Numbered from the whole stretch's first letter, positions 17,046-59,200 are shown. The stretch: DNA of 63,633 bases, filler included, from Reclinomonas americana ATCC 50394 (GCA_048213135.1; 19 parts of 19 records of this genome joined end to end with filler, not necessarily neighbours in it), one strand, 5' to 3'. Notes: generated from the sequence alone by a model not told the origin. Program-made: numbers and translations.

Positions 17046-17053
17046 GGCGACAC

Positions 17054-17665: not shown

Positions 17666-17884
17666 CGCCGGCCCTTAGAGCATCGGACCGAAAAGTGGAA
17701 ACCACTTTTCGGAGGCAATCCGATGCCTGACAAAGTGACAGATAGCCATTTGGCGTCCGAAAGGACGCACGGCGATCTAGCGGGCGCGGGGCCTTCCGTC
17801 CATGGCTGCAACGTCACGGGAAAAGCCGATCACGCGAGATTGACCAGCCTTCGCCGATCGCTATAGTCCGCCGCGCCCGAAAGG

Positions 17885-17969
17885 GCCCCTGTGGCGGAAT
17901 TGGTAGACGCGCTCGACTCAAAATCGAGTTCCGCAAGGAGTGCTGGTTCGATCCCGGCCAGGGGCACCA
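17885..17969 (+). tRNA. tRNA-Leu (CAA)
   Basis: Acceptor stem GCCCCTG/CAGGGGC, D-loop GGAATTGGTAGAC, anticodon arm CTCGA-CTCAAAA-TCGAG, long variable arm, GGTTCGATCC T-loop and encoded CCA. 85 nt. Confidence 0.97.
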
Positions 17970-18079
17970 TTCCTCACGGCATCCGTCGTCCGTCGGGCCC
18001 GCCGCCCTAAAATCGCCTTTCGCTCCCGCTCTGTCTTGCCCTCGAATCGATCCTGACGGGCAGCCGAGGAGACGTGAGC

Positions 18080-18574
18080 ATGAGGACAGTCGCCATCGCC
18101 GTCGCAGCCAGCGTTCTCGGGGCCGTTCCGGCTTTTGCCGAGGAACTTCCACAACGCAAACCAGGCCTCTGGGAGAGCAAGTCGACGAGCGCCGAGGGCG
18201 AGACGAGCGCCAAGCAATGCGTCGGTCCCGGCACCGACCGCGCCATGGTCGGCGGCATGGCTGGCGCCGCCTGCTCGAAGATGGAGGTGACGAAGACCGC
18301 GACTGGCTATTCCGTCGCGACCGAGTGCGCGATCGGCCAGATCAAGGCGGTGGGCAATAGCGTGGTCACTGGCGATTTCCAGACGAGCGTGCGCACCGAG
18401 GGGACCACCAAGCTCACCGGCGTGCCCGGCCAGGCCGGGGAGGTCGAGCGCAAGCTCGTGGTCGAGGCCAGGCGCGTCGGCGATTGCGGGCCGGGCCAGA
18501 AGCCCGGCGACATCATCATGCCCGATGGCAAGGTGATTTCGATGCCGGGAGCGGCCGGCGCGCCGAAGCAGTAA
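18080..18574 (+). CDS. DUF3617-like exported protein, bacterial
   Basis: Signal peptide, PQRKPGLWE, KQC, and C-terminal ARRVGDCGPGQKPGDI. GAGG RBS-like sequence upstream. Confidence 0.75.
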   Translation: MRTVAIAVAASVLGAVPAFAEELPQRKPGLWESKSTSAEGETSAKQCVGPGTDRAMVGGMAGAACSKMEVTKTATGYSVATECAIGQIKAVGNSVVTGDFQTSVRTEGTTKLTGVPGQAGEVERKLVVEARRVGDCGPGQKPGDIIMPDGKVISMPGAAGAPKQ

Positions 18575-18578
18575 CTGC

Positions 18579-18812
18579 TCAGCCGGGCGCGCCGGCGATC
18601 ACGCCCTTGCGGAACAGGAAGCAGCCATAGGGGCGGGGATCGCCGACCTGCACCACGGCGAAGGCCTGCTTGGCCGCTTCGTAGAAGGCGAAGCGCTCGA
18701 TGCCGGCCAGCGGCTCCGAGCGGCCGAGCGCCCGGTCGAGTTCGGCCTGGACCTGGCGCTGCACGTCAGGAATTTCGGCGGGATCGCCGACGACCAGCAT
18801 GCGCCGTGCCGG
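18579..18812 (-). CDS. RbsD/FucU-family mutarotase (5'-truncated), bacterial
   Basis: IERFAFYEAAKQAFAVVQVGDPRPYGCFLFRKGVI is the RbsD/FucU C-terminal signature. Confidence 0.88.
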   Translation of the reverse strand, partial: PARRMLVVGDPAEIPDVQRQVQAELDRALGRSEPLAGIERFAFYEAAKQAFAVVQVGDPRPYGCFLFRKGVIAGAPG

Positions 18813-18912: not shown

Positions 18913-19188
18913 GCCGATCTCCTGCCCAAGTCGGCCGGGCGCCTGCTGGAGATCGTGACGCAGGCCGCGATCATCCTCTTCGCCGCGATCCTGATCCGCT
19001 ACTCCTTCGGGCTGATCGAGCGGACCTGGGATGTCGAATCGATCGCGCTGCCCGTATCGAGCGCAGCCCTCTACGTGGTGATGCCGCTGGCAGGCCTCGC
19101 TTTGATCCTGCAGGCGCTGGCCGAGATCGGCGACGTGCTCGCCGGCCGCAAGGTCGACACCGCCGAGCCGGGGACGCAGCCGCTATGA
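18913..19188 (+). CDS. dctQ: TRAP transporter small permease DctQ (5'-truncated)
   Basis: Two TM helices with SIALPVSSAALYVVMPLAG. The stop overlaps the dctM start (ATGA). Confidence 0.8.
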   Translation, partial: ADLLPKSAGRLLEIVTQAAIILFAAILIRYSFGLIERTWDVESIALPVSSAALYVVMPLAGLALILQALAEIGDVLAGRKVDTAEPGTQPL

Positions 19189-20471
19189 GCACGCTGATGC
19201 TGCAGATCCTGCCGGTCTGGTTCGCCGCGTTGCTGCTGGGCGTGCCGCTCTTCGTCTCGATGGGGCTGGCGGCGATAGCCTTCGCCTTCTTCGGTGGCTT
19301 CCCGCTCGGCATCGTCCCGCAGAAGATCGCGCAATCCGCCAACTCGTTCCCGCTGCTGGCGGCGCCGCTCTTTATCCTGATGGGCAACATCATGAATTCG
19401 GCGGGGATCACCGACCGGATCTTCGCCTTTGCCACGGCCTGCGTCGGCTGGCTGCGCGGCGGGCTCTGCCACGCCAACATCCTCGCCAGCGTGATTTTCG
19501 CGGGAATGTCGGGCTCGGCGGTGGCTGATGCCGGAGGCGTCGGCACGCTCGAGATCAAGGCGATGCAGGACGAGGGCTACGATCCCGAGACGGCGGCGGC
19601 GATCACGGCGGCTTCGGCGACGATCGGGCCGATCATCCCGCCTTCGCTGCCAATGGTGATCTACGGCGTTTCCGCCGACGTCTCGATCGGCGGGCTCTTC
19701 CTCGCCGGCGTCATCCCCGGCCTGCTGATGGCCGGCGCGCTGATGGCGATGGTGGTCTATGTCGCGAAGAAGCGCGATCTGCCGCGCCATCCCTTCCCCG
19801 GCGCGGCCCAGCTCTGGGTCGCCTATAAGGAGGCGCACTGGGCGCTGATGACCCCGGTCATCCTGTTCGGCGGGATGATGCTGGGCATCTTTACGCCGAC
19901 GGAGGCGGCTGCGGTCGCGACCGCCTATGCGATCGTGCTCGGCCTCTTCGTCTACAAGAGCTTCTCGCTGAACGATCTGCCGGAACTGGTGGTGCAGACC
20001 GTCGAGACCACCGGTGTCGTGCTGGCGCTGGTGATGGCGGCGGCGGCGCTCGGCTGGTGCCTGTCGATTTCGCGCATCCCGCAGACGGTCGGCCCGATGC
20101 TGGTCGACCTCGCCGGCAACCCGCTGATCTTCCTCCTGATCGTCAACCTGCTGCTGCTCTTCGTCGGCTGCTTCATGGAAGCGCTGGCGGCGATGCTGAT
20201 CCTGATCCCGATTCTGACGCCTGCCGCGGCGCAGTTCGGCATCGATCCGGTCCAGTTCGGGCTGATTTTCGTGCTCAACCTGATGATCGGCACGATCACG
20301 CCGCCGGTGGGCGTCGTGCTCTTCGTCACCTCGAAGATCGCCAAGATCTCGTTCGAGGCGATGTCGCGGGCGATCGTGCCCTGGCTCCTGCCGCTGCTCG
20401 CCGTGCTCGCCGCGATCACGCTCTGGCCACCGCTGACGACCTGGCTGCCGAACCTCGTGCTCGGCAAATGA
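19185..20471 (+). CDS. dctM: TRAP transporter large permease DctM
   Basis: 428 aa. SFPLLAAPLFILMGNIM, FAGMSGSAVADA, IGPIIPPS, GIFTPTEAA and IGTITPPVG. Confidence 0.95.
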   Translation: MSTLMLQILPVWFAALLLGVPLFVSMGLAAIAFAFFGGFPLGIVPQKIAQSANSFPLLAAPLFILMGNIMNSAGITDRIFAFATACVGWLRGGLCHANILASVIFAGMSGSAVADAGGVGTLEIKAMQDEGYDPETAAAITAASATIGPIIPPSLPMVIYGVSADVSIGGLFLAGVIPGLLMAGALMAMVVYVAKKRDLPRHPFPGAAQLWVAYKEAHWALMTPVILFGGMMLGIFTPTEAAAVATAYAIVLGLFVYKSFSLNDLPELVVQTVETTGVVLALVMAAAALGWCLSISRIPQTVGPMLVDLAGNPLIFLLIVNLLLLFVGCFMEALAAMLILIPILTPAAAQFGIDPVQFGLIFVLNLMIGTITPPVGVVLFVTSKIAKISFEAMSRAIVPWLLPLLAVLAAITLWPPLTTWLPNLVLGK

Positions 20472-20572
20472 GNNNNNNNNNNNNNNNNNNNNNNNNNNNN
20501 NNNNNNNNNNNNNNNNTTAATTAATTAANNNNNNNNNNNNNNNNNNNNNNNNNNNNNNNNNNNNNNNNNNNN

Positions 20573-21464
20573 GCTCGATCGGCACCGGATTGCGCTTCTG
20601 CGGCATGATCGAGGAGATCTGCACGAAGGCGTTGGGGACGTAGATCTGGCCGACCTCGAAGGCGGTCCAGAACTGCAGGTCCTGGATCAGCCGGCCGAGA
20701 TGCAGGAAGACCAGCTCGATCGCGCTGAATACGGCGGTCGTGTAGTCGACCGCGGCGATGCAGCCATAGGAATTCCGCAACGGCGCCTCGAAGCCGAGCA
20801 GATGGGCGGTGCGATGGCGGTCGAGCGGGAAGCCGGAGGTCGTGATCGCGGCTGCCCCGAGCGGGCAAAGGTCGAGCAACTCGCGCGCCTGCATCAGGCG
20901 CCGATGGTCGCGCAGCATCACCTCGATCGCGGCGGAAAGGTAATGGCCGAGCGTCGAGGGCTGGGCCGGCTGACCATGGGTGTAGGCGACGATCAGCGTC
21001 GCCTTCTCGCGCTCGGCCAGCGTCAACGCCGCGGCGATCAGGGCGCGCAGCTGGCCGGCAAGCTTGTCGAGTCGCGGCTTCAGCGCCAGCTTGAACAAGG
21101 TGTGGTCGATGTCGTTGCGTGAGCGGCCCGTGTGCAGGCGGCCATTGTCGTCGGGTTGCAGCCGCTTGCGCAGCTCGGCCTCGACCAGGAAGAAATAATC
21201 CTCGACCTCGCCGGTATAGGTCAGCGCCGCTGGCTCGATCTCTTTCTCGACCGCAATCAGGGCTCGGGCGATGCGCGAGGCGGTCTCCCGCGGGAGAATC
21301 CCCGTCTCGGCCAGCATGACGAGATGGGCGCGGTCGATGGCGCGGAAGCCGTCGACATGATGCGTCCTGGCCCCGTCGAAGAGCGGGCGCAGCACCGTCT
21401 CCTTGTAGACCGGGTTCGGAAAGACGGAGTTATCGCTGACGCGCGGGTCGGCGGGTTCGATCAT
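20573..21464 (-). CDS. argininosuccinate lyase-like (fumarase/aspartase superfamily), 3'-truncated
   Basis: LHTGRSRND, AYTHGQPAQP, CPLGAAAITTSGFPLDR and SSIMPQKRNP. Confidence 0.9.
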
Positions 21465-21469
21465 CGAAC

Positions 21470-22312
21470 TTATCCCTTCAGCCCGGCGAGCACGACGCCG
21501 CGGACGATGTAGCGCTGCAGCAGCAGGAAGACGGTGAGCGTCGGCAGGGTCGCCAGCGCCGCGCCCGTCATGATCAGCTCCCACTGGACTTGTGCCTCGA
21601 CGGCGTAGCTCGTGAGGCCGACGGGCAGGGTGTAGAGTTCCTTGCTGGTCGTCACGATCAGCGGCCAGATGAAGGCCGTCCAGTTGCTGAGGAAGGTGAA
21701 GATCGCCAGCGCCGAGAGCGCCGGCGTGACCAGAGGCAAGGCGATGCGCCAGAAGATCGCGAACTCGTTGAGGCCGTCGACGCGTGCTGCCTCGAGGAAA
21801 TCGTTCGGCACCGTCTCGAAGAACTGCTTCATCAGGAAGGTGCCGAAGGCGGTCATCATGCCGGGGAACATGATGCCCCAATAGCTGTCGAGCCAGCCGA
21901 AGTTCTTGGCCATGACGTACCAGGGGATGACCAGCATCTCGGTCGGAATCATCAGCGTCGACAGGATCGCGACGAAGACGAGGTAACGGCCGCGGAACTG
22001 GAATTTCGCCAGGGTGTAGCCGACCAGGCTGTCGAAGAAGACGTTGGAGAGCGTCACCGCCGTGGCGATGCCGAAGGAATTGGCGAACCAGCGCAGGAAG
22101 CGGCCGTCGGACAGCACCGTCACGTAGTTCTCGAGCGTCGGATGCGCCGGGAAGAAGGCGAGATCGTAGATCTCGGAGGAATCCTTCAGCGAGGTCGCGA
22201 ACATGAAGGCGAGCGGCGTCACCATCAGCAGGCCGCCGCCGAAAAGCAGCAGCCAGGTCAGGATGCGGCCGGGCTCGATCCGGCCGGAGACGGGGGAGGC
22301 GATGGCGCTCAT
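21470..22312 (-). CDS. carbohydrate ABC transporter permease (MalG-like)
   Basis: The real start is MSAIASP at 22312, overlapping the upstream stop. EAA loop VPNDFLEAARVDG, and FLSNWTAFIWPL. Confidence 0.93.
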   Translation of the reverse strand: MSAIASPVSGRIEPGRILTWLLLFGGGLLMVTPLAFMFATSLKDSSEIYDLAFFPAHPTLENYVTVLSDGRFLRWFANSFGIATAVTLSNVFFDSLVGYTLAKFQFRGRYLVFVAILSTLMIPTEMLVIPWYVMAKNFGWLDSYWGIMFPGMMTAFGTFLMKQFFETVPNDFLEAARVDGLNEFAIFWRIALPLVTPALSALAIFTFLSNWTAFIWPLIVTTSKELYTLPVGLTSYAVEAQVQWELIMTGAALATLPTLTVFLLLQRYIVRGVVLAGLKG

Positions 22313-23247
22313 CAGCGGTCCCTCAGCAGGCGCAGCTGCAGCAGCGAGATGCAGAGCAGCACGAGGAAGAGCACGACGGTCTGCGCCGCGGCATAGCCCA
22401 TGTCGAAGGAGGAGAAGGCGGTCTGGTAGATCATCAGCACGAGCGGCTTGGTCGCGTTCAGCGGCCCGCCGGGATCGCTGCTCGTCTGGCTGGTCATGTT
22501 GTAGACCTGATCGAAGATTCGCAGGAACCCGATCGAGGAGAAGACGACGAGGAAGATGATCGTCGGCTTGAGCAGAGGCAGCGTGATCTTCCTGAGGATC
22601 GCGAGATCTGGGAGCCCGTCGATCCGCGCCGCCTCGTAATAGGTGGTGGGGATGGCGCGCAGGCCTGCGAGGAAGATCACCACCTGGAAGCCGAGCCCGG
22701 CCCAGATCGCCGGCGCCAGCACGGCCGGCAGCGCCTGGGTGGTCGAGCGCAGGAAGGGCTGCTGGGCGATGCCGAGCCCGGCGAGCAGGTTGTTGAACAG
22801 CCCGATCGGCACCGGCTGGTAGAACCAGCGCCAGACCCAGGCCATCGCCGCGGCCGTGGTCAGGAAGGGCAGGAAGTACAGCGCCCGGATGAAGCCGTGC
22901 ATGAAGCGGATGCGGTCGAGATGGTAGGCGATCACGAAGGCGAGGATCAGGCTGAGCGGCGTGCCGATGACGAGGTAGAGGAAGGTGTTGCCGAACACCT
23001 TCCAGAACACCGGATCGGCGAGCAGCCGCTCGAAATTCGCCAGCCCGACGAAGCTGGGCGGCGTCATCAGGTTCCACTTCGTGGTCGAGATCACGAAGGC
23101 CTCGACCGTCGGGTAGAAGCGGATCAGCCCGTAGAACAGGATCGGCACGGCGAGGAATGCCCAGGCCCAGACCACCTGCTTCTGCTGCAGGCTGAGGCCC
23201 TGCCAGAGGCGCCCGCCGGAGCGGGCGACATCGGTGTCGGTGGTCAT
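22312..23247 (-). CDS. carbohydrate ABC transporter permease (MalF-like)
   Basis: FVGLANFERL, LAGLRAIPTTYYEAARIDG and FDMGYAAA. Confidence 0.93.
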   Translation of the reverse strand: MTTDTDVARSGGRLWQGLSLQQKQVVWAWAFLAVPILFYGLIRFYPTVEAFVISTTKWNLMTPPSFVGLANFERLLADPVFWKVFGNTFLYLVIGTPLSLILAFVIAYHLDRIRFMHGFIRALYFLPFLTTAAAMAWVWRWFYQPVPIGLFNNLLAGLGIAQQPFLRSTTQALPAVLAPAIWAGLGFQVVIFLAGLRAIPTTYYEAARIDGLPDLAILRKITLPLLKPTIIFLVVFSSIGFLRIFDQVYNMTSQTSSDPGGPLNATKPLVLMIYQTAFSSFDMGYAAAQTVVLFLVLLCISLLQLRLLRDR

Positions 23248-23284
23248 GCGCGTCCTGTCCTGACGTCTGCTTAGACGATCGCCG

Positions 23285-24544
23285 TCACTTCTTGTAGAAA
23301 CGGTCGAGGATCGCCTGCTCGGCCTTGGCCGCCTCGGCGAGCGCCGCCTTCGGCTCCTGGTTCTGCAGCAGGACGCGATTGGCCATGTCGAGGATGACTT
23401 GGCGCTGCGGCAGCTCGTCGACGAACACGGTCGCCTGCGAATAGTTCAGCGCCTTCAGGAACGGGCCGTAGATGGGGTGGGCGAGGTTCTTCTCGGTCTC
23501 CGCCGCAGCCTTGCGCGCCGGCAGCTCGCCGACCGTCTCCAGCCAGAGCTGCATCGCCTCGGGCGAGGTGACGAAGGCCATGAACTTCTTGGCCGCTTCC
23601 AGCTTCTCGCCAGTCGGCTTTGTGGTGATGGCGTTGACCCAGTAGCTGGCGAAGTTCGACTTGGTCCCGTCCGGGCCAGCCGGCAATTCGGCGACGCCCC
23701 ATTCGAAGTTCTTGATGCCGCCGAAGGCACCGAGGCGGAAGGAGCCGTCGATCGTCATCGCCGCGCGCCCGGCGCGGAAGGCGGCCTGGCCCTCGTCCAT
23801 GAAGCCGGCGAGGCCGACCTTGTGGGTGCGCTGGAGATCGGCGTACCAGGCGAGCGACTTGGCGCCGGCCTCGCTGGCATAGGTCACGGTCTTGTTGTCG
23901 TCGGAATAAGGCTTGCCGCCCATCTGGCGCAGCAGCACCTCGCGCCACCAATGGTAGTCCTGGCCGGGCATGTCGAGCGTCACGCCGGCCTGCAGCATGT
24001 TGCCGGCGCCATCGCGCTTCGTCGTCTTCTTGGCTGCGTCCAGGAATTCGTCGAGGGTCTTCGGCGGCTTGCTGGGATCGAGCCCGGCCTCCTGGAAGAT
24101 CTTCTTGTTGTAGAACAGCGCCAGCGAGCGCACCGCCGTCGGCAGGGCGTAGTACTCGCCCTCGCGCTTCATCGCCGAGACGATTGGATAGAACTCTTTC
24201 TCGATCATCTCCGGCGGGAAGGCGTCGCGCGGCAGGGGGCGGATGACCTTGCCGGCGATGAAGTTGTCGACCCAGCCATAGAAGAGCTGGACCACGTCCG
24301 GGCCCTGGCCGGCGGGTGCGGCGGCGACGATCTTGGTCTGGTAGTCGGCATAGGGGAAGGTCGTGTGCTTGACCTTGATGGTCGGGTTGGCGGCCTCGAA
24401 GCGCTTGATCAGCTCGTTCATCGCCTTGATTCGGGCGTCGAATACATATTGCCAGTACTCGATCTCGACCGCCTGGGCGCGAGCTCCGGCGATCGCGCCG
24501 ACCGACATCGCGATACCCAGCAACAATCCGCGAAAGCCGCGCAT
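23285..24544 (-). CDS. ABC transporter extracellular solute-binding protein (family 1)
   Basis: GGAGG RBS before MRGFRGLLLG, signal peptide ending ARA, GQGPDVVQ and LFYNKKIFQEAGLDP..PPKT. Confidence 0.93.
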   Translation of the reverse strand: MRGFRGLLLGIAMSVGAIAGARAQAVEIEYWQYVFDARIKAMNELIKRFEAANPTIKVKHTTFPYADYQTKIVAAAPAGQGPDVVQLFYGWVDNFIAGKVIRPLPRDAFPPEMIEKEFYPIVSAMKREGEYYALPTAVRSLALFYNKKIFQEAGLDPSKPPKTLDEFLDAAKKTTKRDGAGNMLQAGVTLDMPGQDYHWWREVLLRQMGGKPYSDDNKTVTYASEAGAKSLAWYADLQRTHKVGLAGFMDEGQAAFRAGRAAMTIDGSFRLGAFGGIKNFEWGVAELPAGPDGTKSNFASYWVNAITTKPTGEKLEAAKKFMAFVTSPEAMQLWLETVGELPARKAAAETEKNLAHPIYGPFLKALNYSQATVFVDELPQRQVILDMANRVLLQNQEPKAALAEAAKAEQAILDRFYKK

Positions 24545-24823
24545 GGTCTTGTCCTCCCCGATCTGGTTGCGATGCTCGCCTGCATCGGCTCCCGGCCGGC
24601 GAGGCATCCAAGCCGCCATGCTTTTACAGCCGCCTGCTCGCTGTCAACCGATTAATTCACTTGAGTTGGATTAATGGCCGTCGCAGCTTGTGCAGGCAAG
24701 GAAGGCCGACCCAGATGCCGCATNNNNNNNNNNNNNNNNNNNNNNNNNNNNNNNNNNNNNNNNNNNNTTAATTAATTAANNNNNNNNNNNNNNNNNNNNN
24801 NNNNNNNNNNNNNNNNNNNNNNN

Positions 24824-35801: not shown

Positions 35802-46016
<10,215 letters not shown>

Positions 46017-47450: not shown

Positions 47451-48256
47451 AGGCCCTCGGCCATGGCGGCGGTGAAGTCGTGACGGTCGAGCGATTTCGG
47501 ATAGGGCGCGAAGAGATAGCGATGCTCGAGCAGGCGCGCGAGCCGGGCCTCGTCGACCGTGCCCGCGAGCGAGAAGGCGCCGTCGCGATCCATCTCGCCC
47601 CGTCCGTGCAGCTTGATCCAGTCGTTGAGCGGCGCATTGCCCGGGCCGGTGTCGAAGGCGAGCACATGCTCGGCGTCGGCGAAGGCGCTGAGATTGCCGA
47701 CGCCGCCGAGATTGAGAACGGCGGTCTCCTGTCCGGCGCCGATGCTGCGCATCAGCGCAGCGTGATAGCTCGCGACCAGCGGCGCGCCTTGCCCGCCGGC
47801 GCGAACATCGCCGGTGCGGAAATCGTAGACGACGTCGATGCCGAGCCGCCCCGCCATCAACACGCCGTCGCCGAGCTGGCGAGTGTCACCCTTGCGTTCC
47901 CTGGTCGGGGCACGATGCAGCACCGTCTGGCCATGGAAGCCGATCGCCGCGACCTCACTCGCCGCGATGCCCTCAGCGCCGAGGAATTCAGCGACAGCGT
48001 CCGCCTGCGCCAGTGTCAGGGCGCGCTCGGCCTCCGCGAAAATCGCCGGCTCAGCCCCTTCGAAGCGCCAGGCCAATGCAGCCTGAACCGCCTCTGCGAG
48101 CAGGCTGCGAACCTCCTGGCGATAGGGTGCGAGCCGCCAGGGACCGAATTCGGCGACGGCAGCGCCGTCCGTGCGGATCGCGGCGATGTCGATATTGCCG
48201 TCGAGGACCGTTCCGGTCATCAGGCCGATCGCCCAGGCTGGCTGCATGCGCCGCAT
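47451..48256 (-). CDS. anmK: anhydro-N-acetylmuramic acid kinase (3'-truncated), bacterial
   Basis: [62 protein letters not shown] and PKSLDR. Confidence 0.93.
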
Positions 48257-48423
48257 CTCCCTCTCGTCACTCCATATCACGCAATTGCAGACGCAAAGCC
48301 GCTGCGCAGTTTTGCTGGAATGGCTTCGGCGATGCCTGTCACAGGCCGGCCTCACCCGCAATCCCGTCCCGATTCCGACCCAATCGCTACTTACCCAAGG
48401 CAGGCCTGTTCTGGAGATCGGCC

Positions 48424-48482
48424 ATGCTGACCCGTCGCTTCGTCCTGACCGCCTGCCTCGGCCTCGCTCCGGCGGGATCTGC
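48424..48482 (+). CDS. start of a Tat-exported bacterial protein (fragment)
   Basis: GGAG RBS followed by [15 protein letters not shown], a twin-arginine motif. Cut by the linker. Confidence 0.5.
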
Positions 48483-48826
48483 NNNNNNNNNNNNNNNNNN
48501 NNNNNNNNNNNNNNNNNNNNNNNNNNTTAATTAATTAANNNNNNNNNNNNNNNNNNNNNNNNNNNNNNNNNNNNNNNNNNNNACTTCCTCTCCAAGTCAC
48601 TGACAAAAAAACACTTAACGAAAAAGAGCGGCGGCCGATGGACGGACCACTGTCCCTCTCCTCTTCCCGCCGGTGCAAAACGTTGCGAAGAGCAAACATC
48701 TCGCGTGATCCGTGAACTCTCCCACTGATTTTCATATCTTCTCTCCACCCCATGCCAGAAAGACCCAGTAACGGGCGAGTGCCGCGAGTCGCGATTAATT
48801 GTACCTCGCATACACAACACAACAAA

Positions 48827-49927
48827 ATGTCACGGCCAGGCGCAGGGCGCAAGAAGCACAACGATCGGGAAGAGCGTGAGGTGTGTTTGTGAGCGAGTGT
48901 ATGCGGATGGGTGGAGTGAAGGTGGGAGAGTGGGTGGTGACCATGGTCAGCCATGGTCAGCGCACGCGCGCGCACAAGAGAGGGACAGGCCTGTGTGCGT
49001 GTTCCTAGTGAAGTTGATGTGCACCAATGATCTCTGTGCTTCTCTCTCGCTTTTTCTCTTCAACCTGCTGTGTGATGAACGAAGTTGAACTGACACGCGT
49101 GACACACATTCGTGGTGCAGTTGCTCTTGCGCGGTGCGAGTGGCGGCAGCGGTGATGCGCTGGGCGGTATGCGTGTAAGGGACATAAGAACGTCGGGGTT
49201 CGGTCGAGGAGGAGGACGTGGCGGTGGCGGTGGCGACGATGATGATGACGATGGAGGCGATGTGGAGCGCGGTCGAGCACCGATCGCTGATGGTGGCACA
49301 GACTTTCGTGAGGCGCTGGGTCTTGGCAGTGGGCGGCGAACGAGTGGATCGTCGTCGTCATCGTCAGCAGCAGCGATGAATGGTCTTGGTGGAGGAGGAG
49401 GAGGAGGGCGCGCTGTCAGCCCGACTGAGCGGTTGGCGCAGCACTATTCACAGCAGCAGGTGAGTGCAGTCCACTGCTGACAGAAGAAGACAGCGCGTTG
49501 ACGAGGGTGACGGCTGCGCACGCAGGTGATGATCGCCAAGCAAGACAGGCGACTGGACGACTTGTCGGATGCGGTGAAGCGATTGCATGATGTCAGCCTC
49601 GGCATCAACCAGGAACTCGCTGCACAGGAGCCGTTGCGTCAGTCCTCATCGTCTTCGTGGTGTCGTGGTGCTTGATGACTAATGCCGTGACAGTGAACTG
49701 AGAAAGCTCGACGCCGCGCTGGACAACACGAACAGCAGACTGGAACGCAGTCTGCGCAAGATCGATCACCTCTTGAAGAACACCAAAGGTATTGCGTGCG
49801 TGCCTCCACGTTCACTCAGCGGTCTCACTCACCGACTGCGATCGTGTGTGCAGACAGCGGCAAGTGGTGCATCATTTGCTGCTTACTGGCAGTGCTGATT
49901 GTTCTTCTAGTCATTTTGATGTCGTAA
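48827..49927 (+). CDS. Qc-SNARE (syntaxin-8/-6-like), 5 exons
   Basis: QVMIAKQDRRLDDLSDAVKRLHDVSLGINQELAAQEPELRKLDAALDNTNSRLERSLRKIDHLL is a Qc SNARE motif, followed by a C-terminal TM (WCIICCLLAVLIVLLVILMS*). The start codon is tentative. Confidence 0.85.
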
Positions 49928-50299
49928 ATTGTGTGCATGTATAACTTTTGTGATCCGCACACTGCCTGTCCCACAATCCTTCCCCAACACACTGGCCACT
50001 GCAGCCGCAAAAGTGCGAGCGCGGTCACTGCGTCGTTGTCGGAGAAGACCGCATGTGTCCGCCACTCGAGTCTATCTGCTAGGTTGTAAACTGAACTCGG
50101 TCGAGTGAGGATAAGTGGCGTGACTGGCGGCTTCTCTCTCCTTATTTTTTGTTCTTTTTGTGCTTTTAATCATTCTACAGCAGCTGCTTGGACAGCACCG
50201 GCAGGCACTCAGTGATGCGTAACGGGTCGGAATATGCAGCGAGCGTGCAGACAGTGGGAAAGAGGGAAAGGGAATCTCGGTGATGTGCCACCTGTGTGT

Positions 50300-53200
50300 G
50301 GCCCACAAGCTCAATCAGAAAGCACACGATGTGGCACTCAAGTACAGCATGCTCGACACCACTTCCAGATCGAAGAAGTCCGTCTGTGTCTGTTCTTCCG
50401 AGTTTCGTCCACTGCATTTCGGTGTCAGTGGCGAGTTCGGGAGGCAGACCGGCGGCTTCTTCAATTCTTTTTTTGCTTTCTCTCTCTCATTCTCCTTTGT
50501 CGCTCGAGAACAGCATGTGCACTACCATCATCTGGATCGGTGACAACTGCTGCTGGACTGATTCACACTGTGTTGCCAGTGTGAACAGATGAAATACCGA
50601 ACAAGAATCTCTCTCTCTCTGAACATGCAGTCTCTCTCCTCGCCCACAAGCTCGCCCACCAGCCTCACCGTGCTGTACTCAAGTATGGCACGCTCGACAC
50701 CACTTCCAGATCGAAGAAGTCCGTCTGTGTCTGTTCTTCCGAGTTTCGTCCACTGCATTTCGGTGTCAGTGGCGAGTTCGTGAGGCAGACCGGCGGCTTC
50801 TTCAATTCTTTTTTTGCTTTCTCTCTCATTCTCCTTTGTTGCTAGAATGTAGGAGGTGCACCATCATCTGGGTCGATGACAACTGCTGCTGGACTGATCC
50901 ACACACAGTGTTGCCAGTGTGAACAATCAAATACCGAAACAAGAATCTCTCTCTCTCTGAGCATGCAGTCTCTCTCCTCGCCCACAAGCTCAACCACCGA
51001 GCTCATTGTGCTGCACCCAAGTACAGCATGCTCGACACAGCCTCCACATCGAAGAAGTCTGTCTGTGTCTGTTCTTCCGTGTCTCGTCCACTGCATTTCG
51101 GTGTCAGTGGCGGATTCGTGAGGCTGACCGGTGGCTTCTTCGCTTTTACTTTTTGCTCCCTCTCTCTTCTTTTTCGTTGCTCGAATGTAGGAGGTGTACC
51201 ACCACCATCTGGATCGGTGACAACTGCTGCTGGACTGATCCACACTGAGTTGCCAGTGTGATCATGATCAAATGAAATACCGGAACAAGAATCTCTCTCT
51301 CTCCCTCTCTGAGCATGCAGTCTCTCTCCTCGCCCACAAGCTCGCCCACCAGCCTCACCGTGCTGTACTCAAGTACAGCATGCTCGACACCACCTCCAGA
51401 CCGAAGAAGTCTGTCTGTGTCTGTTCTTCCGAGTTTCGTCCACTGCATTTCGGTGTCAGTGGCGAGTTCGTGAGACTGACCGGCGGCTTCTTCGCTTCTT
51501 TTTTTGCTTTCTTTCTATCTCTCTCTCTTTCTTTTGTCACTTAAGTACAGCATGTGTATTACCACCAGGATTGGTGACAACTGTTGTTGGACTGATCCAC
51601 ACTGTGTCGCCAGTGTGAAAACAATGAAATACCGAAACAAGAATCTCTCTCTCTCCGTGAGCATGCAGTATCCCTCCTCACCCACAAGCTCACTCTCCAA
51701 GATCATTATGGTGTACTCAAGTGCAGCATGCTCGACACCACCTCCAGACCGAAGAAGTCTGTCTGTGTCTGTTCTTCCGAGTTTCGTCCACTGCATTTCC
51801 GTGTCAGTGGCGAGTTCGTGAGACAGGCTGGCGGCTTCTTCACTTCTTTTTTGCCTCCTTTCTATCTCTCTCTCTCTCCTTGTCGCTCCAGCATGTGCGC
51901 CATCATCTGGATCGGTGACAGCTGCTGCTGGACTGCTCCACACTGTGCTGCCAATGCGAACGGAGGAAATACCGAACAACCTCTCTGAGCATGCAGTCTC
52001 TCTCCTTACCCACAAGCTCACTCACCAGGATCACCGTGCTGTACTCAAGTATGGCACGCTCGACACCACCTCCAGGTCGAAGAAGTCCGTCTGTGTCTGT
52101 TCTTCCGAGTCTCGTCCATTGCATTTCGGTGTCAGTGGCGAGTTCGTGAGGCAGACCGGCGGCTTCTTCATTTCTTTTTTTGCTTTTCTCTCTCTCCTTT
52201 TTCGTTGCTCAAGTGCATGTGCACCACCACCATCTGGATTGGAGACAACTGCTGGTGGAGAGATCCACACTGTGTTGCCAGTGTGAACAAAAAATAAAAT
52301 ACCGAACAAGAATCTCTCTCTCTCTGTGAGCATGCAGTCTCCCTCCTCAACCACAAGCTCAACCACCGAGCTCATTGTGCTGCACCCAAGTACAGCATGC
52401 TCGACACCACCTCCAGGTCGAAGAAGTCCGTCTGTGTCTGTTCTTCCGAGTCTCGTCCACTGCATTTCGGTGTCAGTGGCGAGTTCGTGAGACTGGCCGG
52501 CGGCTTCTTCACTTCTTTTTTTGCTTTCTCTCTCATTCTCCTTTGCTGCTAGAATGTAGGGGGTGCACCACCATTATCGGGATTGGAGATGCCGGACTGA
52601 TCCACACAGTGTTGCCAGTGTGACCAAATGAAATACCGAAACAAGAATCTCTCTCTCTGTGAGCATGCAGTCTCTCTCCTCACCCACAAGCTCACCCACC
52701 AGACTCACTGCACCGTGCACAAGTATGGCATGCTCGACACCGCCTCCAGGTCGAAGAAGTCCGTCTGTGTCTGTTCTTCCGAGTCTCATCCATTGCATTT
52801 CGGTGTCAGTGGCGGGTTCGTGAGGCAGACCGGCGGCTTCTTCACTTTTTTGCTCCCTCTCTCCCTCTCTCTTCTTTTTTTGTCGCCGAGTGCAGCATGT
52901 GAACCACCATCTGGATTGACGGCAACTGTTGCTGGACTGATCCACACTGTGTTGCCAGTGTGAAAACAATGCAAATGCCTAAACAAGAATCTCTCTCTCT
53001 CTGTGAGCATGCAGTCTCTCTCCTCGCCCACAAGCTCAACCACCGAGCCCGCCGTGCTGCACCCAAGTATGGCATTCTCGACACCATCTCCAGATCGAAG
53101 AAGTCCGTCTGTGTCTGTTCTTCCGAGTTTCGTCCATTGCATTTCGGTGTCAGTGGCGAGTTCGTGAGGCTGGTTGGCGGCTTCTTCACTTCTTTTTTTG

Positions 53201-54660
53201 CTTTCTCTCTCATTCTCCTTTGTCACTCATGTGCAGCATGTGTACCACCACCAGGATTGGTGACAAGTGCATCTGGACTGTTCCACACTGTGTTGCCAGT
53301 GTGAAAACAATGCAAATACCGAAACAAGAATCTCTCTCTCTTCTGAGCATGCAGTCTCTCTCCTCACCCACAAGCCCACCCACCAGGATCACTGTGCTGC
53401 ACCCAAGTATGGCATGCTCGACATGACCTCCACATCGAAGAAGTCCGTCTGTGTCTGTTCTTCCGAGTTCGTTCACTGCATTTCGGTGTCAGTGGCGAGC
53501 TCGTGAGGCTGACCGGCGGCTTCTTCGCTTTTTTGCTCCTCTCTCTCTCTCTTTTGTCACTCATGTGCAGCATGTGTACCACCACCAGGATTGGTGACAA
53601 TTGTTGTTGGACTGATCCCCAGTGTGATGCCAGTGTGAACAAAATAAAATACCGAGCAAGAATCTCTCTCTGTGAGCATGCAGTCTCCCTCTCACCCACA
53701 AGCTCACCCTCCAGGATCATTACAGTGCGCTCAAGTATGGCACGCTTGACACCATCTCCAGATCGAAGAAGTCCGTCTGTGTCTGTTCTTCCGAGTTTCG
53801 TCCACTGCATTTCGGTGTCAGTGGCGAGTTCGTGAGACAGGCCGGCGGCTTCTTCACTTCTTTTTTGCTTCCTATCCCTCTTCTCTTCCTTTGCCTATAG
53901 AGTACAGCATGTGGACCACCATCTGGATTGGAGACAACTGCTGCTGGACTGATCCACACTGTGTTGCAAGTGTGAACAAATGAAATACCGAAACAAGAAT
54001 CTCTCTCTCTCTCTGAGCATGCAGTCTCTCTCCTCGCCCACAAGCTCAACCACCGAGCCCGCCGTGCTGTACTCAAGTACAGCATGCGCGACACCACCTC
54101 CAGGTCGAAGAAGTCCGTCTGTGTCTCTTCCGAGTTTCGTCCACTGCATTTCGGTGTCAGTGGCGAGTTCGTGAGACTGGCCGGCGGCTTCTTCGCTTTT
54201 TTGCTCCTCTCTCTCTCTNNNNNNNNNNNNNNNNNNNNNNNNNNNNNNNNNNNNNNNNNNNNTTAATTAATTAANNNNNNNNNNNNNNNNNNNNNNNNNN
54301 NNNNNNNNNNNNNNNNNNCTCTCTTTTGTCACTCATGTGCAGCATGTGCACCACCATCTGGATTGGAGACAACTGTTGTTGGCCTGATCCCCACTGTGTT
54401 GCCAGTGTGAAAACAATGCAAATACCGAAACAAGAATCTCTCTCTCTCTGGGCATGCAGTCTCTCTCCTCGCCCACAAGCTCAACCACCGAGCCCGCCGT
54501 GCTGTACTCAAGTACAGCATGCGCGACACCATCTCCAGATCGAAGAAGTCAGTCTGTGTCTGTTCTTCCGAGTCTCGTCCACTGCATTTCGGTGTCAGTG
54601 GCGAGTTCGTGAGGCTGACCGGCGGCTTCTTCACTTCTTTTTTGCTCCCTCTCTCTCTTT
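50300..54660 (+). repeat. tandem array of at least 13 ~340-bp units, each with a conserved 91-nt hairpin (candidate ncRNA array or satellite)
   Basis: The core GAAGAAGT starts at 50372, 50713, 51051, 51403, 51751, 52079, 52420, 52753, 53097, 53437, 53765, 54107 and 54542. Spacing is 328-352 bp before the gap. Confidence 0.95.
50372..50462 (+). ncRNA. putative structured RNA hairpin (copy 1 of at least 13)
   Basis: Pairings GAAGAAG/CTTCTTC, CCG/CGG, GTCTG/CAGAC, CGAGT/GTTCG, TCG/CGA, CCACTG/CAGTGG and CAT-[TTCG]-GTG, followed by a T-run. Expression is not shown. Confidence 0.45.
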
Positions 54661-54763
54661 CTTTCTTTCTTCTCCATCAATCACTCACTTGTCATACAAA
54701 TCAACACGAGCGTGCGTACACTTTCTTCTTTTTTTCTCAGTGGCGGTGGCCGCACGCAAGTGC

Positions 54764-56962
54764 TTACTCGCTGTCCACTGCGGGATCCGGATTGCCGCCC
54801 ATCTTCCTGTAACGCTTGAGGAAGAAGGGAGCCTCCGTTCGCAGAGACCGCGGGGAAATGTGCAAGTCGGCAAACGTCTTGGCGTTAGGCGACACGGTGT
54901 TCTGCAGACCGAGGCGAACAATCTGATCACGAGTGATTGGCGGATTTGGCAGCTTCTCCAGCACAGCGGCATACAACTTGGCCAACGTGAGCGGCACTGG
55001 GAATCGCAGAGAGCAAGTTAGCACGCATGAGCAGCAACACGACAGACACACCAAGAGAAGAGGAAGCACTCACTTGGTACCAAGTGAGGCTTGCGCTCGG
55101 TGACCTCGAAAATGAGGTCAGTGATCTCTTGCAGACGCATAACCTCGGGCCCGCCGAGCTCGTACGTCTGACCCATTGAATCCTCGTGGAAAATGCTCTC
55201 GACAATGGCGTCAGCCACGTCGGCGGCCTGTTGCATGTGTGTCAGTATCCCGCTCAACGGCCGCCAAGCATCACCACGCAGTGATCACACGGACGAAACA
55301 TGGACTGGCTGCTGCTTGGCGCGGCCGCTGGCAATCATCGGCACAAACGACAACACCCGAATGCTGGTGGCCAGCGCGTTGAGGAAGTTGTCCTCGGGAC
55401 CAAAGAGCAGGCCGGGGCGCAAAATCGTCGCCGACGGGAACGCCTTCAGCACGGCCTCCTCGCCCGCAGCCTGCGTCAAGAGCACCACACAGATAATGAT
55501 GAGAAACAATCTTCTTTTCTCGCCACGCAGGGACGCCAGACCTTGGTGGCCAGCGACTCGGAGGGCGAATACTTGTCGGCACCGAGGCAAGAGACGTGGA
55601 TCAAGCGCGACACGCCGTTCTCCGCGCATGCCTGCATTTTTTACGCGAGTGAGCTCCCAAGTGCACACTGCGACTCAAGGCTGCGCATGCCGCACCCTTG
55701 CCACGTTCTCGGCCAGTGTTACGTTGGTGTACTCGAACGAGTAGTTGCGTGTGGGGTGGCTGCTGCCCATCAGGTTGATCACCACATTGGAGCGCGACAC
55801 GGCCAAGTTGATTGAGCCCTGGTCTCGCGGCTGCAGTGGAACGACGCAGGATACAGAGGTGAGGAGGGGCCACACGGACGACACACACGCACGATCGGAG
55901 AGTGGAAGAGAGAGAGAGAAAGGAAGACGGGGAGTGAAAGTTGAAATAAAAATGTGGGAACTGATGACGAATATGCGAGTCACACAGAGAGAGCGATCGC
56001 AGTGCATCCGCATCAGCCACGAAGCCCCGAAAGACAACCGAGGTTGCGTCGGGCGTGCCAAAGCAGAGGGAAGAAAAACTCTTCCCGAGCCAGTGACAAG
56101 CGCCCAACATTCCCTCCGGAGCAGTGTGTCTATCCAGCGACGCACAAAGAGAGAGGAAAGAAAAAGGGAGCACGAGGCGACCTTCTCTTCCTTCCGCCCC
56201 CCTTTCTGCTTCCGCCAGCAAAAAGCTTCCCCTCAAAATCCTTCTTGCGCAGTTATGACTCATTTGCTACTCACGACATGCACCCCACATTCAGGGAACA
56301 CCTCCAAAGTGATTGGAGGGAGCAGCAGATCTAAGGACCACGCGTCCAGGAGACAACGAGAGAAAGAGAGGAAGAGAGCAGTAGAGGTGTGTGTTGCGAC
56401 GCAACATGGAAGCGAATGGGCGCAATCTGGCCCAGATCTCCCATGAGCTTCAGATGACGATAGTCGTGCTCATCGCCGCGGTACGGAATGATGACTTGCG
56501 AGCCAATCTTGCCTGAATATAGACACACCCACAGTCGTCACTCACTCATGCAGCAGAATGGTCACTACTGCACACACACGCACCAAGGCGATTGACAGTG
56601 TAACGACCGAGGAAGCCCGTGTTGCCAAACACAGTGGCCACCACACCCGACACCGACGAGCGGCCGCCCAAGCCACGTGGGCCACGCCCAAGGCGGCTCA
56701 CATCAAGTGAGAAGTAGCGACGCGACTGCACACAACAGGAGAAGAAGAAGAAGAGTGTGAGAGTGCGCGGTAAATGGCGACATGAAGCGCACACTTGTGC
56801 CCCATCCCGCATGCGTGCAGACATATGCGCGTGTGTGAGTGTGTGCGTTGTGTGCGCTTGGAGAGAGTGTGTGAGTGTGTGCGAGTGAGACGCAACTGCG
56901 CCGAGCATTTGGGATTGACGAGTGAACGACGATGGATAGTGGATCAACGGATAGCTGGCCAT
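54764..56962 (-). CDS. NDUFA9: NADH dehydrogenase (complex I) 39-kDa subunit NDUFA9, multi-exon
   Basis: [82 protein letters not shown] and [10 protein letters not shown]. Start at 56962 or 56908. Confidence 0.95.
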
Positions 56963-57162
56963 AGCTATCGCCTGCAGGGTGCGTAGTGCGCACGAGTCGC
57001 TTCCTCCCCGCCCACTCCAACTTCGTGTGTGACTCACTCCTCTCTTTGCGCTTTTGTTTCACTGTGTTTGTGTTTGTGTTTCATCTGATGTGTGACGCAA
57101 ACACATTAGGCACATCTTGATTTTGCAGGGAGTGGTGTGTGTGTTTTGACAGGCCGCCTACC
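56963..57162. promoter_or_regulatory. probable bidirectional promoter region between NDUFA9 and AP-2 alpha
   Basis: Head-to-head start codons about 200 bp apart. Positional inference only. Confidence 0.45.
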
Positions 57163-59200
57163 ATGGAGATGCGAGGATTGCAGAACTTCATCGCGGAGAT
57201 CCGCGGATGTTGCGTTGTGTGTGTGTGTGTGTTGGCGTGTGCGTGCGGGGAGAGGAGATGGACATGTGCGCGCGCGCGCTCGCAGCAGCAGCAGAAGAAG
57301 ACGCGTACGCGACACGTTTGTTCTCTCTGCGTCGCTCTCTCTCATGCGTCGTAGTGAGTGGTGAGACAGGGAGCGATTGACTGCTGGTGTAGTTGAGCAT
57401 GCACTCGTCGATTGTCATGCAGCACGTGATGCAGTTGCAGTGAGGCAGCAGATTCGGTGACGGAGACCGCCGCCCTCTGCAGCTACACATGCACTAGTGA
57501 CTTTACCCCTCTGCTTGCTTGTCTTCATGTGCGTGTGTGTCTCCTTGTCTTGGTATGTGCGTGTGTGAGGACTTGCTCGTCCTTTTGTGAGGTCATGATG
57601 CGTCTTCCTCCCACCCTCGCTCTACTTGGCCCTCGGTGCACACTCCGCTCTCCTCCGACGTNNNNNNNNNNNNNNNNNNNNNNNNNNNNNNNNNNNNNNN
57701 NNNNNTTAATTAATTAANNNNNNNNNNNNNNNNNNNNNNNNNNNNNNNNNNNNNNNNNNNNCGTACGCCGGCGACTACGTCTCGGACGACATTTGGTTCC
57801 GTGTGATCCAAATCGTCACCAACGCCGACACGGCACTCAAGCGATACGCTTCTTCCACGGTGTTGGAGGTGCGTGTCGCAGCATGTCGGTTGTTGCCGAC
57901 GTGATGATAATAATAATGTGATTGCATGTCTTGTGTGTAGGCTCTGGAGTCGCCCGCCGCTCACGAGAACGCCGTCAAGATTGGTGGCTACATCATTGGC
58001 GAGTTCGGTTTCCTCATTGACGATGAGACACCACCAGAGCGCCAGTTCGAGGTGCTGCACACCAAGTTCGCCACGGTCACCAACACCACTCGCGCGATTC
58101 TGCTCAACGCGTTCGCCAAGATCCTCAAGCGTGATCTGGTGCGCCCCACGCGTCAAGTCTGTGCTATTTCACTTGCTGCGCCTTCTGACACGTCGTGTCA
58201 CGATGCATGTGCAGAACAACCGCCGTCTGCAGCAGGCCGTGTTCAAGCTGTTCGACAAGTTCACTGACTCGATGGACACGGAGTTGCAGCAGCGCGCGTG
58301 CGAGCTCAAGGCACTCGTGCAGGCTGGTCCGGGTGTGGTGGTTCGTTCGGCTTGCCGATCATGTGACCGTCAGAGTGAGCACATTGTGATGATGGTTTTT
58401 TCCCGATGTACAGAACTTCACCCTGAGCACGCTGCCCGAGTTCGAGCGCCAGAGCTCACTGCTGAAGCTGATTGAGGAGCGCCAGCGTGCCACCGAGGAT
58501 CGCAACATCTGGGTGGCGGTTAGTTGTTGTTACTGCCAGTTGTGAACCAAATGCCGTACCACAGTTGCTCACCTCCTTTCGTCGATGTACAGGCCGAGGC
58601 TCAGTTCGGCGAGGGTGGTCTGGAGGAGGCCGAGGCGCCGCCGGTTCCGGCAGTGCGCACAAAGGCGGCCAGTGGTGGCGGTGCTGCCGACCTGTTCGGT
58701 GGCGACGACATGTTTGGCTCGAAGCCGAGTGCCCCGGCGGCCGCGGCACCGGCAGCGTCTGGCTCCAGGACCACGGTCGACATTATGGACATTTTCGGTG
58801 GTCCCTCGTCTGCACCAGCAGCCGCCGGCGCAGGTGGCGGTGCCAAGAAGGGTGGCGACTTTATGGACATGTTCGACATGGGCCCAGCGGCGGCGTCTGC
58901 TGGCAGCAGCGGTGGCAGCGTGAACTTCACACCGACCGCCGACAACCTGCAGGCGTACGACGATGTCATTCGCAACGGCGAGGGTGTGGTGCACGACGGT
59001 GAGTCGCCATCTTTTTTTGGATCTGAGGGATTAGGAGGGAGGCGAGGGTCTTATTGTGTCTGTTGATGCAGATCAATTCTTGACCGTGACCTACCGTGGC
59101 AAGTTCAAGGATGGTCGCCTGGCACAAATTGGCTTCTACCTGTACAACAAGTCGAGCGCACAAGTGTCGGAGCTGACTGGCGAGATTGACGAAGTCCACG
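57163..59200 (+). CDS. AP2A: AP-2 complex alpha-adaptin (exon 1 at 57163-57208, middle part at 57762-59200, gapped)
   Basis: [54 protein letters not shown] and [10 protein letters not shown], then a hinge with DLFG/DMFG/DIFG motifs and the start of the ear domain. Confidence 0.92.

Follow-up and report, generated by a model that had tools for sequence, protein, structure and literature searches.

Tandem UUCG-capped hairpin units of Reclinomonas americana as candidate genes for a small structured RNA

The snaR RNAs of African great apes are described, in passages of PMC2094060, as ~117-nt RNAs which are predicted to form a very stable hairpin (~-56 kcal/mol), carry no open reading frame (ORF) and have a 3' oligo-dT that is taken as a terminator for RNA polymerase III (Pol III). 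The same passages present them as Alu-derived, with an intragenic promoter that has B-box homology, encoded by tandem-amplified genes in repeats of 1.5-5.3 kb, and binding to double-stranded-RNA-binding motifs. Here we describe a tandem array of hairpin-bearing units in a 63,633-base stretch of DNA (the window, that is, the whole stretch analysed) from Reclinomonas americana ATCC 50394 (GCA_048213135.1). Similar to snaR, the units have a stable hairpin, a T-run and tandem amplification; unlike snaR, they have no B box, measure 341 bp, contain an upstream motif at a fixed position and bear no sequence relation to it (no Rfam match).

The bovine leukemia virus (BLV) microRNA (miRNA) cluster is presented in sections of PMC12498455 as a row of hairpins, each transcribed individually by Pol III from internal type-2 A and B boxes and not cut from an RNA polymerase II (Pol II) precursor. 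Our array is likewise a row of hairpins; these are ~91 nt long and, unlike those of BLV, have no A/B boxes. With no B box and no sequence relation to either, the array cannot be a member of the snaR or the BLV group, and it is by analogy that we regard snaR as the closest working analogue, the BLV hairpins being close as well. Type 3 Pol III genes (U6), as outlined in parts of two preprints (bioRxiv 10.1101/2025.01.12.632625, 10.64898/2026.10.23.761446), have an upstream element and a TATA box at fixed distances, a G start and T-rich termination. The motif of the array has the CCCACA core of the upstream sequence element (USE) at a comparable position; unlike U6-type genes, the units have no TATA near -30, and the RNA is not a small nuclear RNA (snRNA) known to Rfam.

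Animal tandem miRNA clusters and hairpin RNA (hpRNA) loci repeat one hairpin many times head to tail, one of its arms being under the stronger constraint, and are expressed as Pol II precursors in which the single units have neither a promoter motif nor a terminator of their own; the array resembles them in its tandem copies of one hairpin with unequally constrained arms, and differs from them in its per-unit upstream motif and T-run. Y RNAs and stem-bulge RNAs (sbRNAs) are Pol III products of ~100 nt with upstream promoters, an oligo-U tail, a conserved terminal stem and a variable apex, and their genes are often clustered. A shared terminal stem and a differing apex are also seen between the array and a diverged copy beside it (copy 0), although the array copies, unlike Y RNAs and sbRNAs, are almost wholly paired up to a 4-nt loop and have no Rfam match.

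We propose that each unit is a small-RNA gene of its own, in which a hairpin RNA is preceded by an upstream element and followed by an oligo-T terminator, and which is Pol III-like in character; judged from the sequence, we give this reading a probability of about 0.45. The anatomy of the units, the constraint on the hairpin and its strand asymmetry, set out below, are direct observations.

Anatomy and constraint of the hairpin array

The array (Table 1) extends over two contigs, closing 48583-54218 and opening 54319-57661, and is interrupted within a CT microsatellite. The window consists of 19 contigs chained with artificial N44-TTAATTAATTAA-N44 spacers (e.g. 6514-6613, 54219-54318) and, since the contigs are spacer-joined, the physical linkage of features adjacent in it is uncertain. 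Tandem Repeats Finder detected a single array at 50302-54217 (period 341, 11.5 copies, 81% matches), and a 10-mer at the base of the hairpin, used as anchor, occurs 13 times at distances of 328-352 bp; the final spacing of 435 bp becomes 335 bp, that is, one unit, when the 100-base N/TTAATTAATTAA spacer is subtracted. The original prediction, an earlier note on this DNA, had claimed at least 13 tandem UUCG-capped hairpins; all 13 anchored sequences fold, and copy 0 extends the series, so that there are at least 13 array copies and 1 diverged copy, at least 14 together. Unit lengths are not multiples of three. The array starts with the -70 motif block of unit 1 (described below) and ends ~40 nt past the last T-run, with no degenerate spacer beyond; neither target-site duplications nor transposon-like flanks were found around it.

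On the + strand all 13 copies form one long hairpin of 88-91 nt with 35-39 pairs and -35.0 to -52.2 kcal/mol, which places them among the stable hairpins expected of miRNA or small interfering RNA (siRNA) precursors (~21 or more continuous pairs). When three of the copies were folded as 120-nt windows, z was -4.0 to -5.6 relative to dinucleotide shuffles, with 0 of 200 shuffles as good. An apical 18-mer is identical in 12 of the 13 copies and absent elsewhere in the window on both strands. Twelve copies have a UUCG loop and copy 5, an exception reported earlier, has UUCC; the loop is closed by a U.G pair. The classic extra-stable UUCG tetraloop has a C-G closing pair; the UUCG loop named in the original prediction is present (12/13), its classic closure is not.

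The + strand folds better than the - strand in every copy (mean -43.7 vs -31.0 kcal/mol, a mean penalty of 12.7), with 4-8 G.U pairs per copy on the + strand and 0-1 on the - strand. RNAalifold, which the original prediction had named as a check, gave a consensus of -41.6 kcal/mol with 37 pairs on the + strand and of -14.7 kcal/mol with 24 pairs on the - strand; the consensus pairs include five fixed G.U and no A.C equivalent (binomial 0.031). Transition mismatches that are all G.U on one strand are unexpected for a DNA palindrome or a double-stranded DNA site.

The hairpin is under strong constraint. Variable columns number 17 of 91 within it and 140 of 247 in the rest of the unit (Fisher 3.4e-10), in line with the earlier claim of a core more conserved than its flanks, and, taken in steps of 10 columns, the hairpin has an identity of 0.80-1.00 and the spacer one of 0.18-0.89. 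Between units, the spacers are 55-86% identical and a 30-nt variable leader 47-100%, with variable sites at 69/125 in the spacer and 23/30 in the leader. Such spacer divergence implies that the copies are old, yet every copy has retained the hairpin. The unit is a mosaic of a conserved 31-nt block, the variable leader, a moderately conserved stretch (-31 to -1), the hairpin, the T-run and the spacer; it is repeated in tandem but, unlike an ordinary satellite, has not diverged evenly over its length. Identical leader haplotypes (leader columns 11-40) in units 2/4, 3/7 and 12/13 define higher-order subfamilies, the spacers group otherwise, and this mismatch suggests that multi-unit duplication or conversion has given the array a mosaic history.

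Across the array's 13 copies, pairing holds in 99.2% of 479 cells, and ten pairs vary one-sidedly with pairing kept. The substitutions listed in the original prediction are all present (CCATTG, GAGTCT, TCTGTC, GGCGGG in copy 8 and GAGCTC in copy 10), as is the split between CAGAC and CTGAC in about half of the copies (6 A, 7 T); the 1-nt deletion reported for copy 10, together with a T-to-C change, turns an internal loop into a continuous helix. Transitions at paired sites keep the pair in 10 cases and break it in 2; pair-neutral variants occur in 3-5 of the 13 copies, and pair-breaking variants are singletons. The arms are unequal, the 5' lower arm varying at 1 of 29 sites and the 3' lower arm at 7 of 24 (p 0.017), with variants of the 3' arm being mainly purine changes opposite U and C-to-U changes opposite G. 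The 5' arm thus seems to be constrained in sequence and the 3' arm mainly in pairing ability, a pattern which would suit either a guide-type product or a 5'-arm site bound by a sequence-specific protein and does not discriminate between them.

Columns 144, 146 and 148 of the 3' lower arm (50784, 50786 and 50788 in unit 2), opposite U of the invariant 5' arm, are polymorphic in 5-6 of the 13 copies. Six of the eight possible combinations are present, which suggests recurrent mutation or recombination among units.

Flanking signals and the diverged copy

In all 13 units a heptamer motif begins exactly 70 nt upstream of the hairpin, reading CCCACAA in 12 of them and ACCACAA in unit 7; for the CCCACAA of copy 0 the distance is 71 nt. 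The motif lies within the conserved 31-nt block (-92 to -62, identity 0.90-0.98), which is present in 12 of the 13 array units, unit 1 being without its upstream part; identity is 0.93 in the motif block and 0.60-0.76 in the 30 columns that follow. Outside the array the motif occurs 12 times in ~118 kb (both strands), and the chance of finding it within 2 nt of the expected place is ~5e-4 (hand calculation). The leader, variable as it is, contains no indel in 13 copies, and the spacer has 23 distinct gap blocks; a leader that is indel-free but variable fits a constraint on spacing. A CCCACAA at 33568, with a T6 110 nt downstream, was rejected as a further candidate: it lies in the start of a - strand ORF and is unstructured (z -0.1, +0.9).

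The palindrome GCATGC occurs twice per unit, ~-90 (upstream block) and ~-26 (proximal leader) from the hairpin (e.g. 50624-50629 and 50688-50693), the proximal one being lengthened to AGCATGCT in about half of the copies; it could be a factor-binding site. The part of the spacer with 0.85-0.89 identity contains a small inverted repeat, CACACTG-6 nt-CAGTGTG (50564-50583 and equivalents), which was discarded as a mini-hairpin, being broken by uncompensated changes in units 2, 5, 7 and 10.

Oligo-T stands directly behind 14 of 14 hairpins, as it does behind the RNA in Pol III genes, with runs of T4-T7 starting 2-7 nt after the stem. In the array the start is 2 or 5 nt past the stem in all 13 copies, within the ~10 nt originally stated, and 12 copies have runs of T6-T7, copy 3 having T4 followed by T5. 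The eukaryotic contigs contain few runs of five or more T (0.54 per kb per strand; chance within 15 nt 0.008), and no T-run stands behind the hairpin on the - strand. It is from the T-run alone that we infer Pol III.

A covariance model, which had also been advised as a check, was built from the 13 array copies and run over the 63-kb window alone; it recovered the array copies at 125-147 bits and one extra match, copy 0, at 50030-50155 (26.8 bits, E 1.4e-4 over the window). The lower stem of copy 0 is homologous to that of the array (arms 16/21 and 14/23 identical) and its apical part differs; apart from the motif, its leader is near random relative to the array leader (13/31, 4/14 and 9/19 identical), and its tail, T-run aside, is identical at 10/23. 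In the model-fitted alignment four pairs are changed on both sides (A-U to G-C, U.G to G-C, U-A to C-G and G-C to U-A), which was matched by 0 of 500 shuffles, slid controls giving 0-1; MAFFT puts copy 0 in a slightly different register. The upstream motif common to this diverged paralogue and its two-sided pair changes provide new support for one gene per unit.

A weaker match of the model at 37236-37310 (19 bits) was rejected as a homologue, being a GA/CT low-complexity inverted repeat. In this repeat, at 37196-37300 (+), a GA-rich and a CT-rich tract form a ~105-nt hairpin (-48 kcal/mol, z -3.4) before a 3'-splice-like CAG, with a weak MIR408 match at E 0.5.

The -70 motif, the indel-free leader, the hairpin and the T-run, found 14 times, read as element, fixed spacing, RNA and terminator. 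We propose that each unit would be a self-contained gene for a small structured RNA of ~95-105 nt. The CCCACAA element 70 nt upstream would serve to place the transcription machinery, the first transcribed base would be the opening G of the hairpin or one close to it, and transcription would stop in the oligo-T tract 2-7 nt past the stem, as in Pol III genes. The product would be a single long U-bulged hairpin, with a sequence-constrained 5' lower arm and a 3' arm constrained mainly in pairing, and tandem amplification would have raised the gene to at least 13 copies, beside which stands an older paralogue that has diverged. We infer transcription, the polymerase, the RNA ends and the function of the RNA from these features; as to function, our guess is an abundant double-stranded RNA ligand or a guide-RNA precursor from the invariant 5' arm.

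Database searches and rival explanations

A search of the region 49900-54800 against Rfam 15 at E up to 10 returned just one chance match, to mir-4435 (17 bits vs gathering 58), in a spacer on the - strand; over the whole window a bacterial tRNA-Leu was the only match at gathering score, and at E up to 1 nothing was found inside the array, in agreement with the original prediction, whose author could match the hairpins to no family known to it. Neither ribozyme families (hammerhead etc.) nor Y_RNA/sbRNA gave an Rfam match at E up to 10. The hammerhead reading was dropped for want of Rfam support, as were a spliced-leader RNA, which would also need a conserved GT donor after the leader (none), and an H/ACA or C/D small nucleolar RNA, of which no ACA/AGA box was found and the C-box-like GTGACAA is not conserved. 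Exact-match scans with the apical 19-mer gave 5 single hits with unrelated flanks in metagenome contigs and 5 single bacterial hits, also with unrelated flanks, in genome contigs, and the 5'-arm 21-mer gave no hits in viral contigs; diverged relatives would escape such scans. The loop 17-mer did not occur in a full-text literature search. As judged by Rfam 15, the exact-word scans and the full-text search, on which the novelty rests, the array belongs to no known family.

Several observations weigh against one Pol III-like gene per unit. No TATA box was found near -30, where -32 to -25 reads AAGTAYRG in the array and AAAAGTGC in copy 0. With consensus sequences from PMC12498455 (A box TRGYNNARNNG, B box GGTTCRANYCY, 30-60 nt apart), an A box with up to 1 mismatch was found on the + strand in 1 of the 13 units at no conserved place, and a B box with up to 2 mismatches on the + strand in 2 of the 13, in the tail behind the hairpin; ARAGORN found no tRNA within the array. 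The multicopy small structured RNA of the original prediction is backed by constraint, + strand fold and T-run, but not by A/B boxes or TATA as Pol III signals. Parts of the two preprints (bioRxiv 10.1101/2025.01.12.632625, 10.64898/2026.10.23.761446) describe the seed-plant USE as RTCCCACATCG near -60, with USE-TATA spacing setting the choice of polymerase, and report the USE as absent from chlorophyte and liverwort U6 genes. This absence makes homology between CCCACAA and the USE doubtful; the likeness is probably coincidental, a positional analogy only, and the motif was surveyed in 63 kb of genome that holds no U6 or other snRNA genes.

The pairing data also have their weak side. No two-sided covariation occurs among the 13 array copies. 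Pair-keeping transitions (10/12) are in weak excess over the 61% expected from the per-base transition rates of the flanks (C>T 35/80, T>C 34/70, A>G 20/53, G>A 12/44; p 0.093), and the caution about transition bias expressed earlier was justified; scoring the G-to-A at the U.G pair at site level gives 11/12 and p ~0.02 (hand calculation). The strand asymmetry and the variant-frequency pattern are better arguments than this test. The four two-sided changes of copy 0 all come from one sequence, in a structure-fitted alignment. Gene conversion may contribute to the low diversity of the hairpin, although alone it would not give such sharp borders. Finally, the conserved block resembles a 3' splice site (pyrimidine tract and CAG), the GTGAG of the 3' arm resembles a 5' splice site, and the + strand between CAG and GTGAG is stop-free (dinucleotide-shuffle P 0.002-0.1 per copy).

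One long Pol II transcript, for instance read-through from the SNARE-like gene upstream, from which the hairpins were excised in a Dicer/Drosha-type process, would make the array a tandem miRNA-like or hairpin-siRNA cluster and the T-runs merely part of pyrimidine-rich spacers. The hairpins are long, near-continuous and + strand specific, the array lies directly downstream of a protein gene on the same strand, the 3' end of NDUFA9 faces it with possible antisense overlap, and all units but unit 1, which is without donor and acceptor block, carry the pyrimidine tract/CAG and GTGAG signals. Constraint is also much stronger on the 5' arm than on the 3' arm, and one constrained and one looser arm is the pattern of guide and passenger arms. 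In typical miRNA hairpins, however, the loop is less conserved than the arms, and here it is as conserved as they are; hairpin 20-mers compared with the 59 kb outside the array gave 1 chance match, with 3 mismatches, in a bacterial contig; and the -70 motif common with copy 0, the indel-free variable leader and the rare T-run at 14 hairpins would go unexplained. We consider such a cluster unlikely. Our preferred reading of one gene per unit has a narrower form, in which the units would be natural 'short hairpin RNA (shRNA) cassettes', that is, 14 autonomous Pol III-type genes of a eukaryotic lineage with sparse sampling, each transcribed directly into a hairpin whose invariant 5' lower arm would give rise to a guide RNA; this form we hold to be quite unlikely.

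Equally, we see little probability in a palindromic satellite that acts at the DNA level (as a protein-binding, cruciform or recombination site, or through template switching between the arms) with no functional RNA. It would accord with the head-to-tail order and the leader-haplotype subfamilies, with the palindromic motifs such as the two GCATGC per unit, with the lack of two-sided covariation inside the array and with the lack of relatives in the collections scanned by exact match, but the mismatches are strand-asymmetric, all being G.U on the + strand at a cost of 12.7 kcal/mol on the other, and variation gathers where, on the + strand, either allele can pair with the U or G opposite. Nor do ordinary satellites, which are uniform, show such sharp-bordered mosaic conservation, and there are no target-site duplications or transposon-like flanks. 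The splice-like signals could instead delimit a repeated exon (CAG / ~149 nt / GTGAG) of a spliced coding or non-coding transcript, an explanation which we regard as highly improbable even though these signals match the short introns of the neighbouring genes and the length of the putative exon is fixed (149 nt in 9/12, 148 in 2, 146 in 1). Since 149 cannot be divided by three, the frame would shift from exon to exon through all three; stops are found in just 2 of 36 exon-frames, being depleted relative to the shuffles, and one frame joined in silico is open throughout, but when there are no more than two stops, an open joined frame is guaranteed. The frames of unit 1 all stay open for >100 nt beyond the putative donor, which points to A-poor composition and not to coding, and unit 1 itself has neither a donor (GGGAG) nor the acceptor block. 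Variability within the unit peaks in the first third of the 'exon', the hairpin is conserved in its nucleotides, and copy 0 has no acceptor and contains stop triplets in the apical part. The candidate ATG is missing in 4 of the 13 copies, 11 array ORFs gave no Pfam match, and no homologue was found for three frames (the 180-aa - strand frame and two + strand frames; the third + strand frame was not searched). The remaining probability belongs to some explanation that we have not thought of.

Between the TGA of CTCTGAGCATGCAG and the TGA of CGTGAGG (~160 nt; e.g. 50780-50782 and 50958-50960) the + strand is stop-free in all frames in 10 of 12 units. The scarcity of stops, mild relative to dinucleotide shuffles, is probably due to A-poor composition, though this may not be the full explanation.

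Genomic surroundings and significance

The original prediction placed the array between the convergent 3' ends of a SNARE gene and NDUFA9. The identity of NDUFA9 is confirmed, while that of the SNARE gene is weak, with a match to the SNAP29 SNARE motif at E 0.03 and no Pfam match when single exons were searched, and the placement rests on two neighbouring contigs that end in the array. The nearest protein matches of the host are just 56-80% identical. From the last T-run to the opposite-strand NDUFA9 stop codon there are 121 nt (54643-54766), so an ordinary NDUFA9 3' untranslated region would extend antisense into the last hairpin unit.

Four of the contigs (16772-18812, 18913-20472, 20573-24723 and 47451-48482) are bacterial, with 65-68% GC and long unbroken ORFs; in this order, they contain DsbB with a tRNA-Leu(CAA), a DctM TRAP transporter, a class-I lyase (Lyase_1) with an ABC permease, and AnmK, and point to contamination or a co-cultured bacterium in the eukaryote assembly. 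The remaining contigs have 53-59% GC, abundant CT and CA microsatellites and genes interrupted by short introns. A FAM91-family gene (+) runs on in order over the spacer between contigs 10100-11331 and 11432-16671, at 10181-11014 and then 11484-12317, covering profile positions 4-87 and then 183-366; this continuity implies that at least some adjacent contigs are true scaffold neighbours.

Table 1 Features of the array, copy 0 and the flanking genes, in window coordinates.
Feature	Position	Strand	Length, energy (kcal/mol)	T-run or remark
SNARE-like gene (tail-anchored, coiled-coil)	ends 49927	+		upstream of the array, same strand
CCCACAA, copy 0	49970-49976	+		71 nt before the hairpin, 43 nt after the SNARE-like stop codon
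Hairpin, copy 0	50041-50137	+	97 nt, minimum free energy -42.2	z -4.2
T6 and T5, copy 0	50145-50150, 50155-50159	+		candidate terminator
Whole array	50301-54672	+	13 units of ~341 bp (328-352)	gap 54219-54318 in CT microsatellite
CCCACAA, unit 1	50302-50308	+		-70 from hairpin
Motif starts, units 2-7	50643, 50981, 51333, 51681, 52009, 52350	+		ACCACAA at 52350
Motif starts, units 8-13	52683, 53027, 53367, 53695, 54037, 54472	+		
Hairpin 1	50372-50462	+	91 nt, -52.2	T7 50468-50474
Hairpin 2	50713-50803	+	91 nt, -46.2	T7 50809-50815
Hairpin 3	51051-51141	+	91 nt, -38.6	T4 51144-51147, then T5
Hairpin 4	51403-51493	+	91 nt, -40.0	T7 51499-51505
Hairpin 5	51751-51841	+	91 nt, -43.0	UUCC loop; T6 51847-51852
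Hairpin 6	52079-52169	+	91 nt, -47.7	T7 52175-52181
Hairpin 7	52420-52510	+	91 nt, -45.4	T7 52516-52522
Hairpin 8	52753-52843	+	91 nt, -42.5	T6 52846-52851
Hairpin 9	53097-53187	+	91 nt, -35.0	T7 53193-53199
Hairpin 10	53437-53526	+	90 nt, -46.5	T6 53529-53534
Hairpin 11	53765-53855	+	91 nt, -46.2	T6 53861-53866
Hairpin 12	54107-54194	+	88 nt (3-nt deletion), -41.9	T6 54197-54202; contig end 54218
Hairpin 13	54542-54632	+	91 nt, -42.7	T6 54638-54643
NDUFA9	stop codon 54764-54766	-		downstream of the array; identity confirmed

Even if untranscribed, the array would still be unusual, its palindromic core having stayed constant amid surroundings that diverged by 15-45%. If transcribed, the units would represent a new multicopy and strongly selected small structured RNA without a counterpart in Rfam, and would show, for the small-RNA genes of this lineage, a candidate promoter element (CCCACAA at -70) and the way in which terminators are used, which would aid annotation and possibly yield tools for guide-RNA expression. 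The asymmetry of the arms predicts which strand of the hairpin carries the function. Should the units moreover prove to be shRNA-like cassettes, they would be the equivalent in cells of those Pol III miRNA genes that are so far known mainly from viruses, with a new upstream promoter element.

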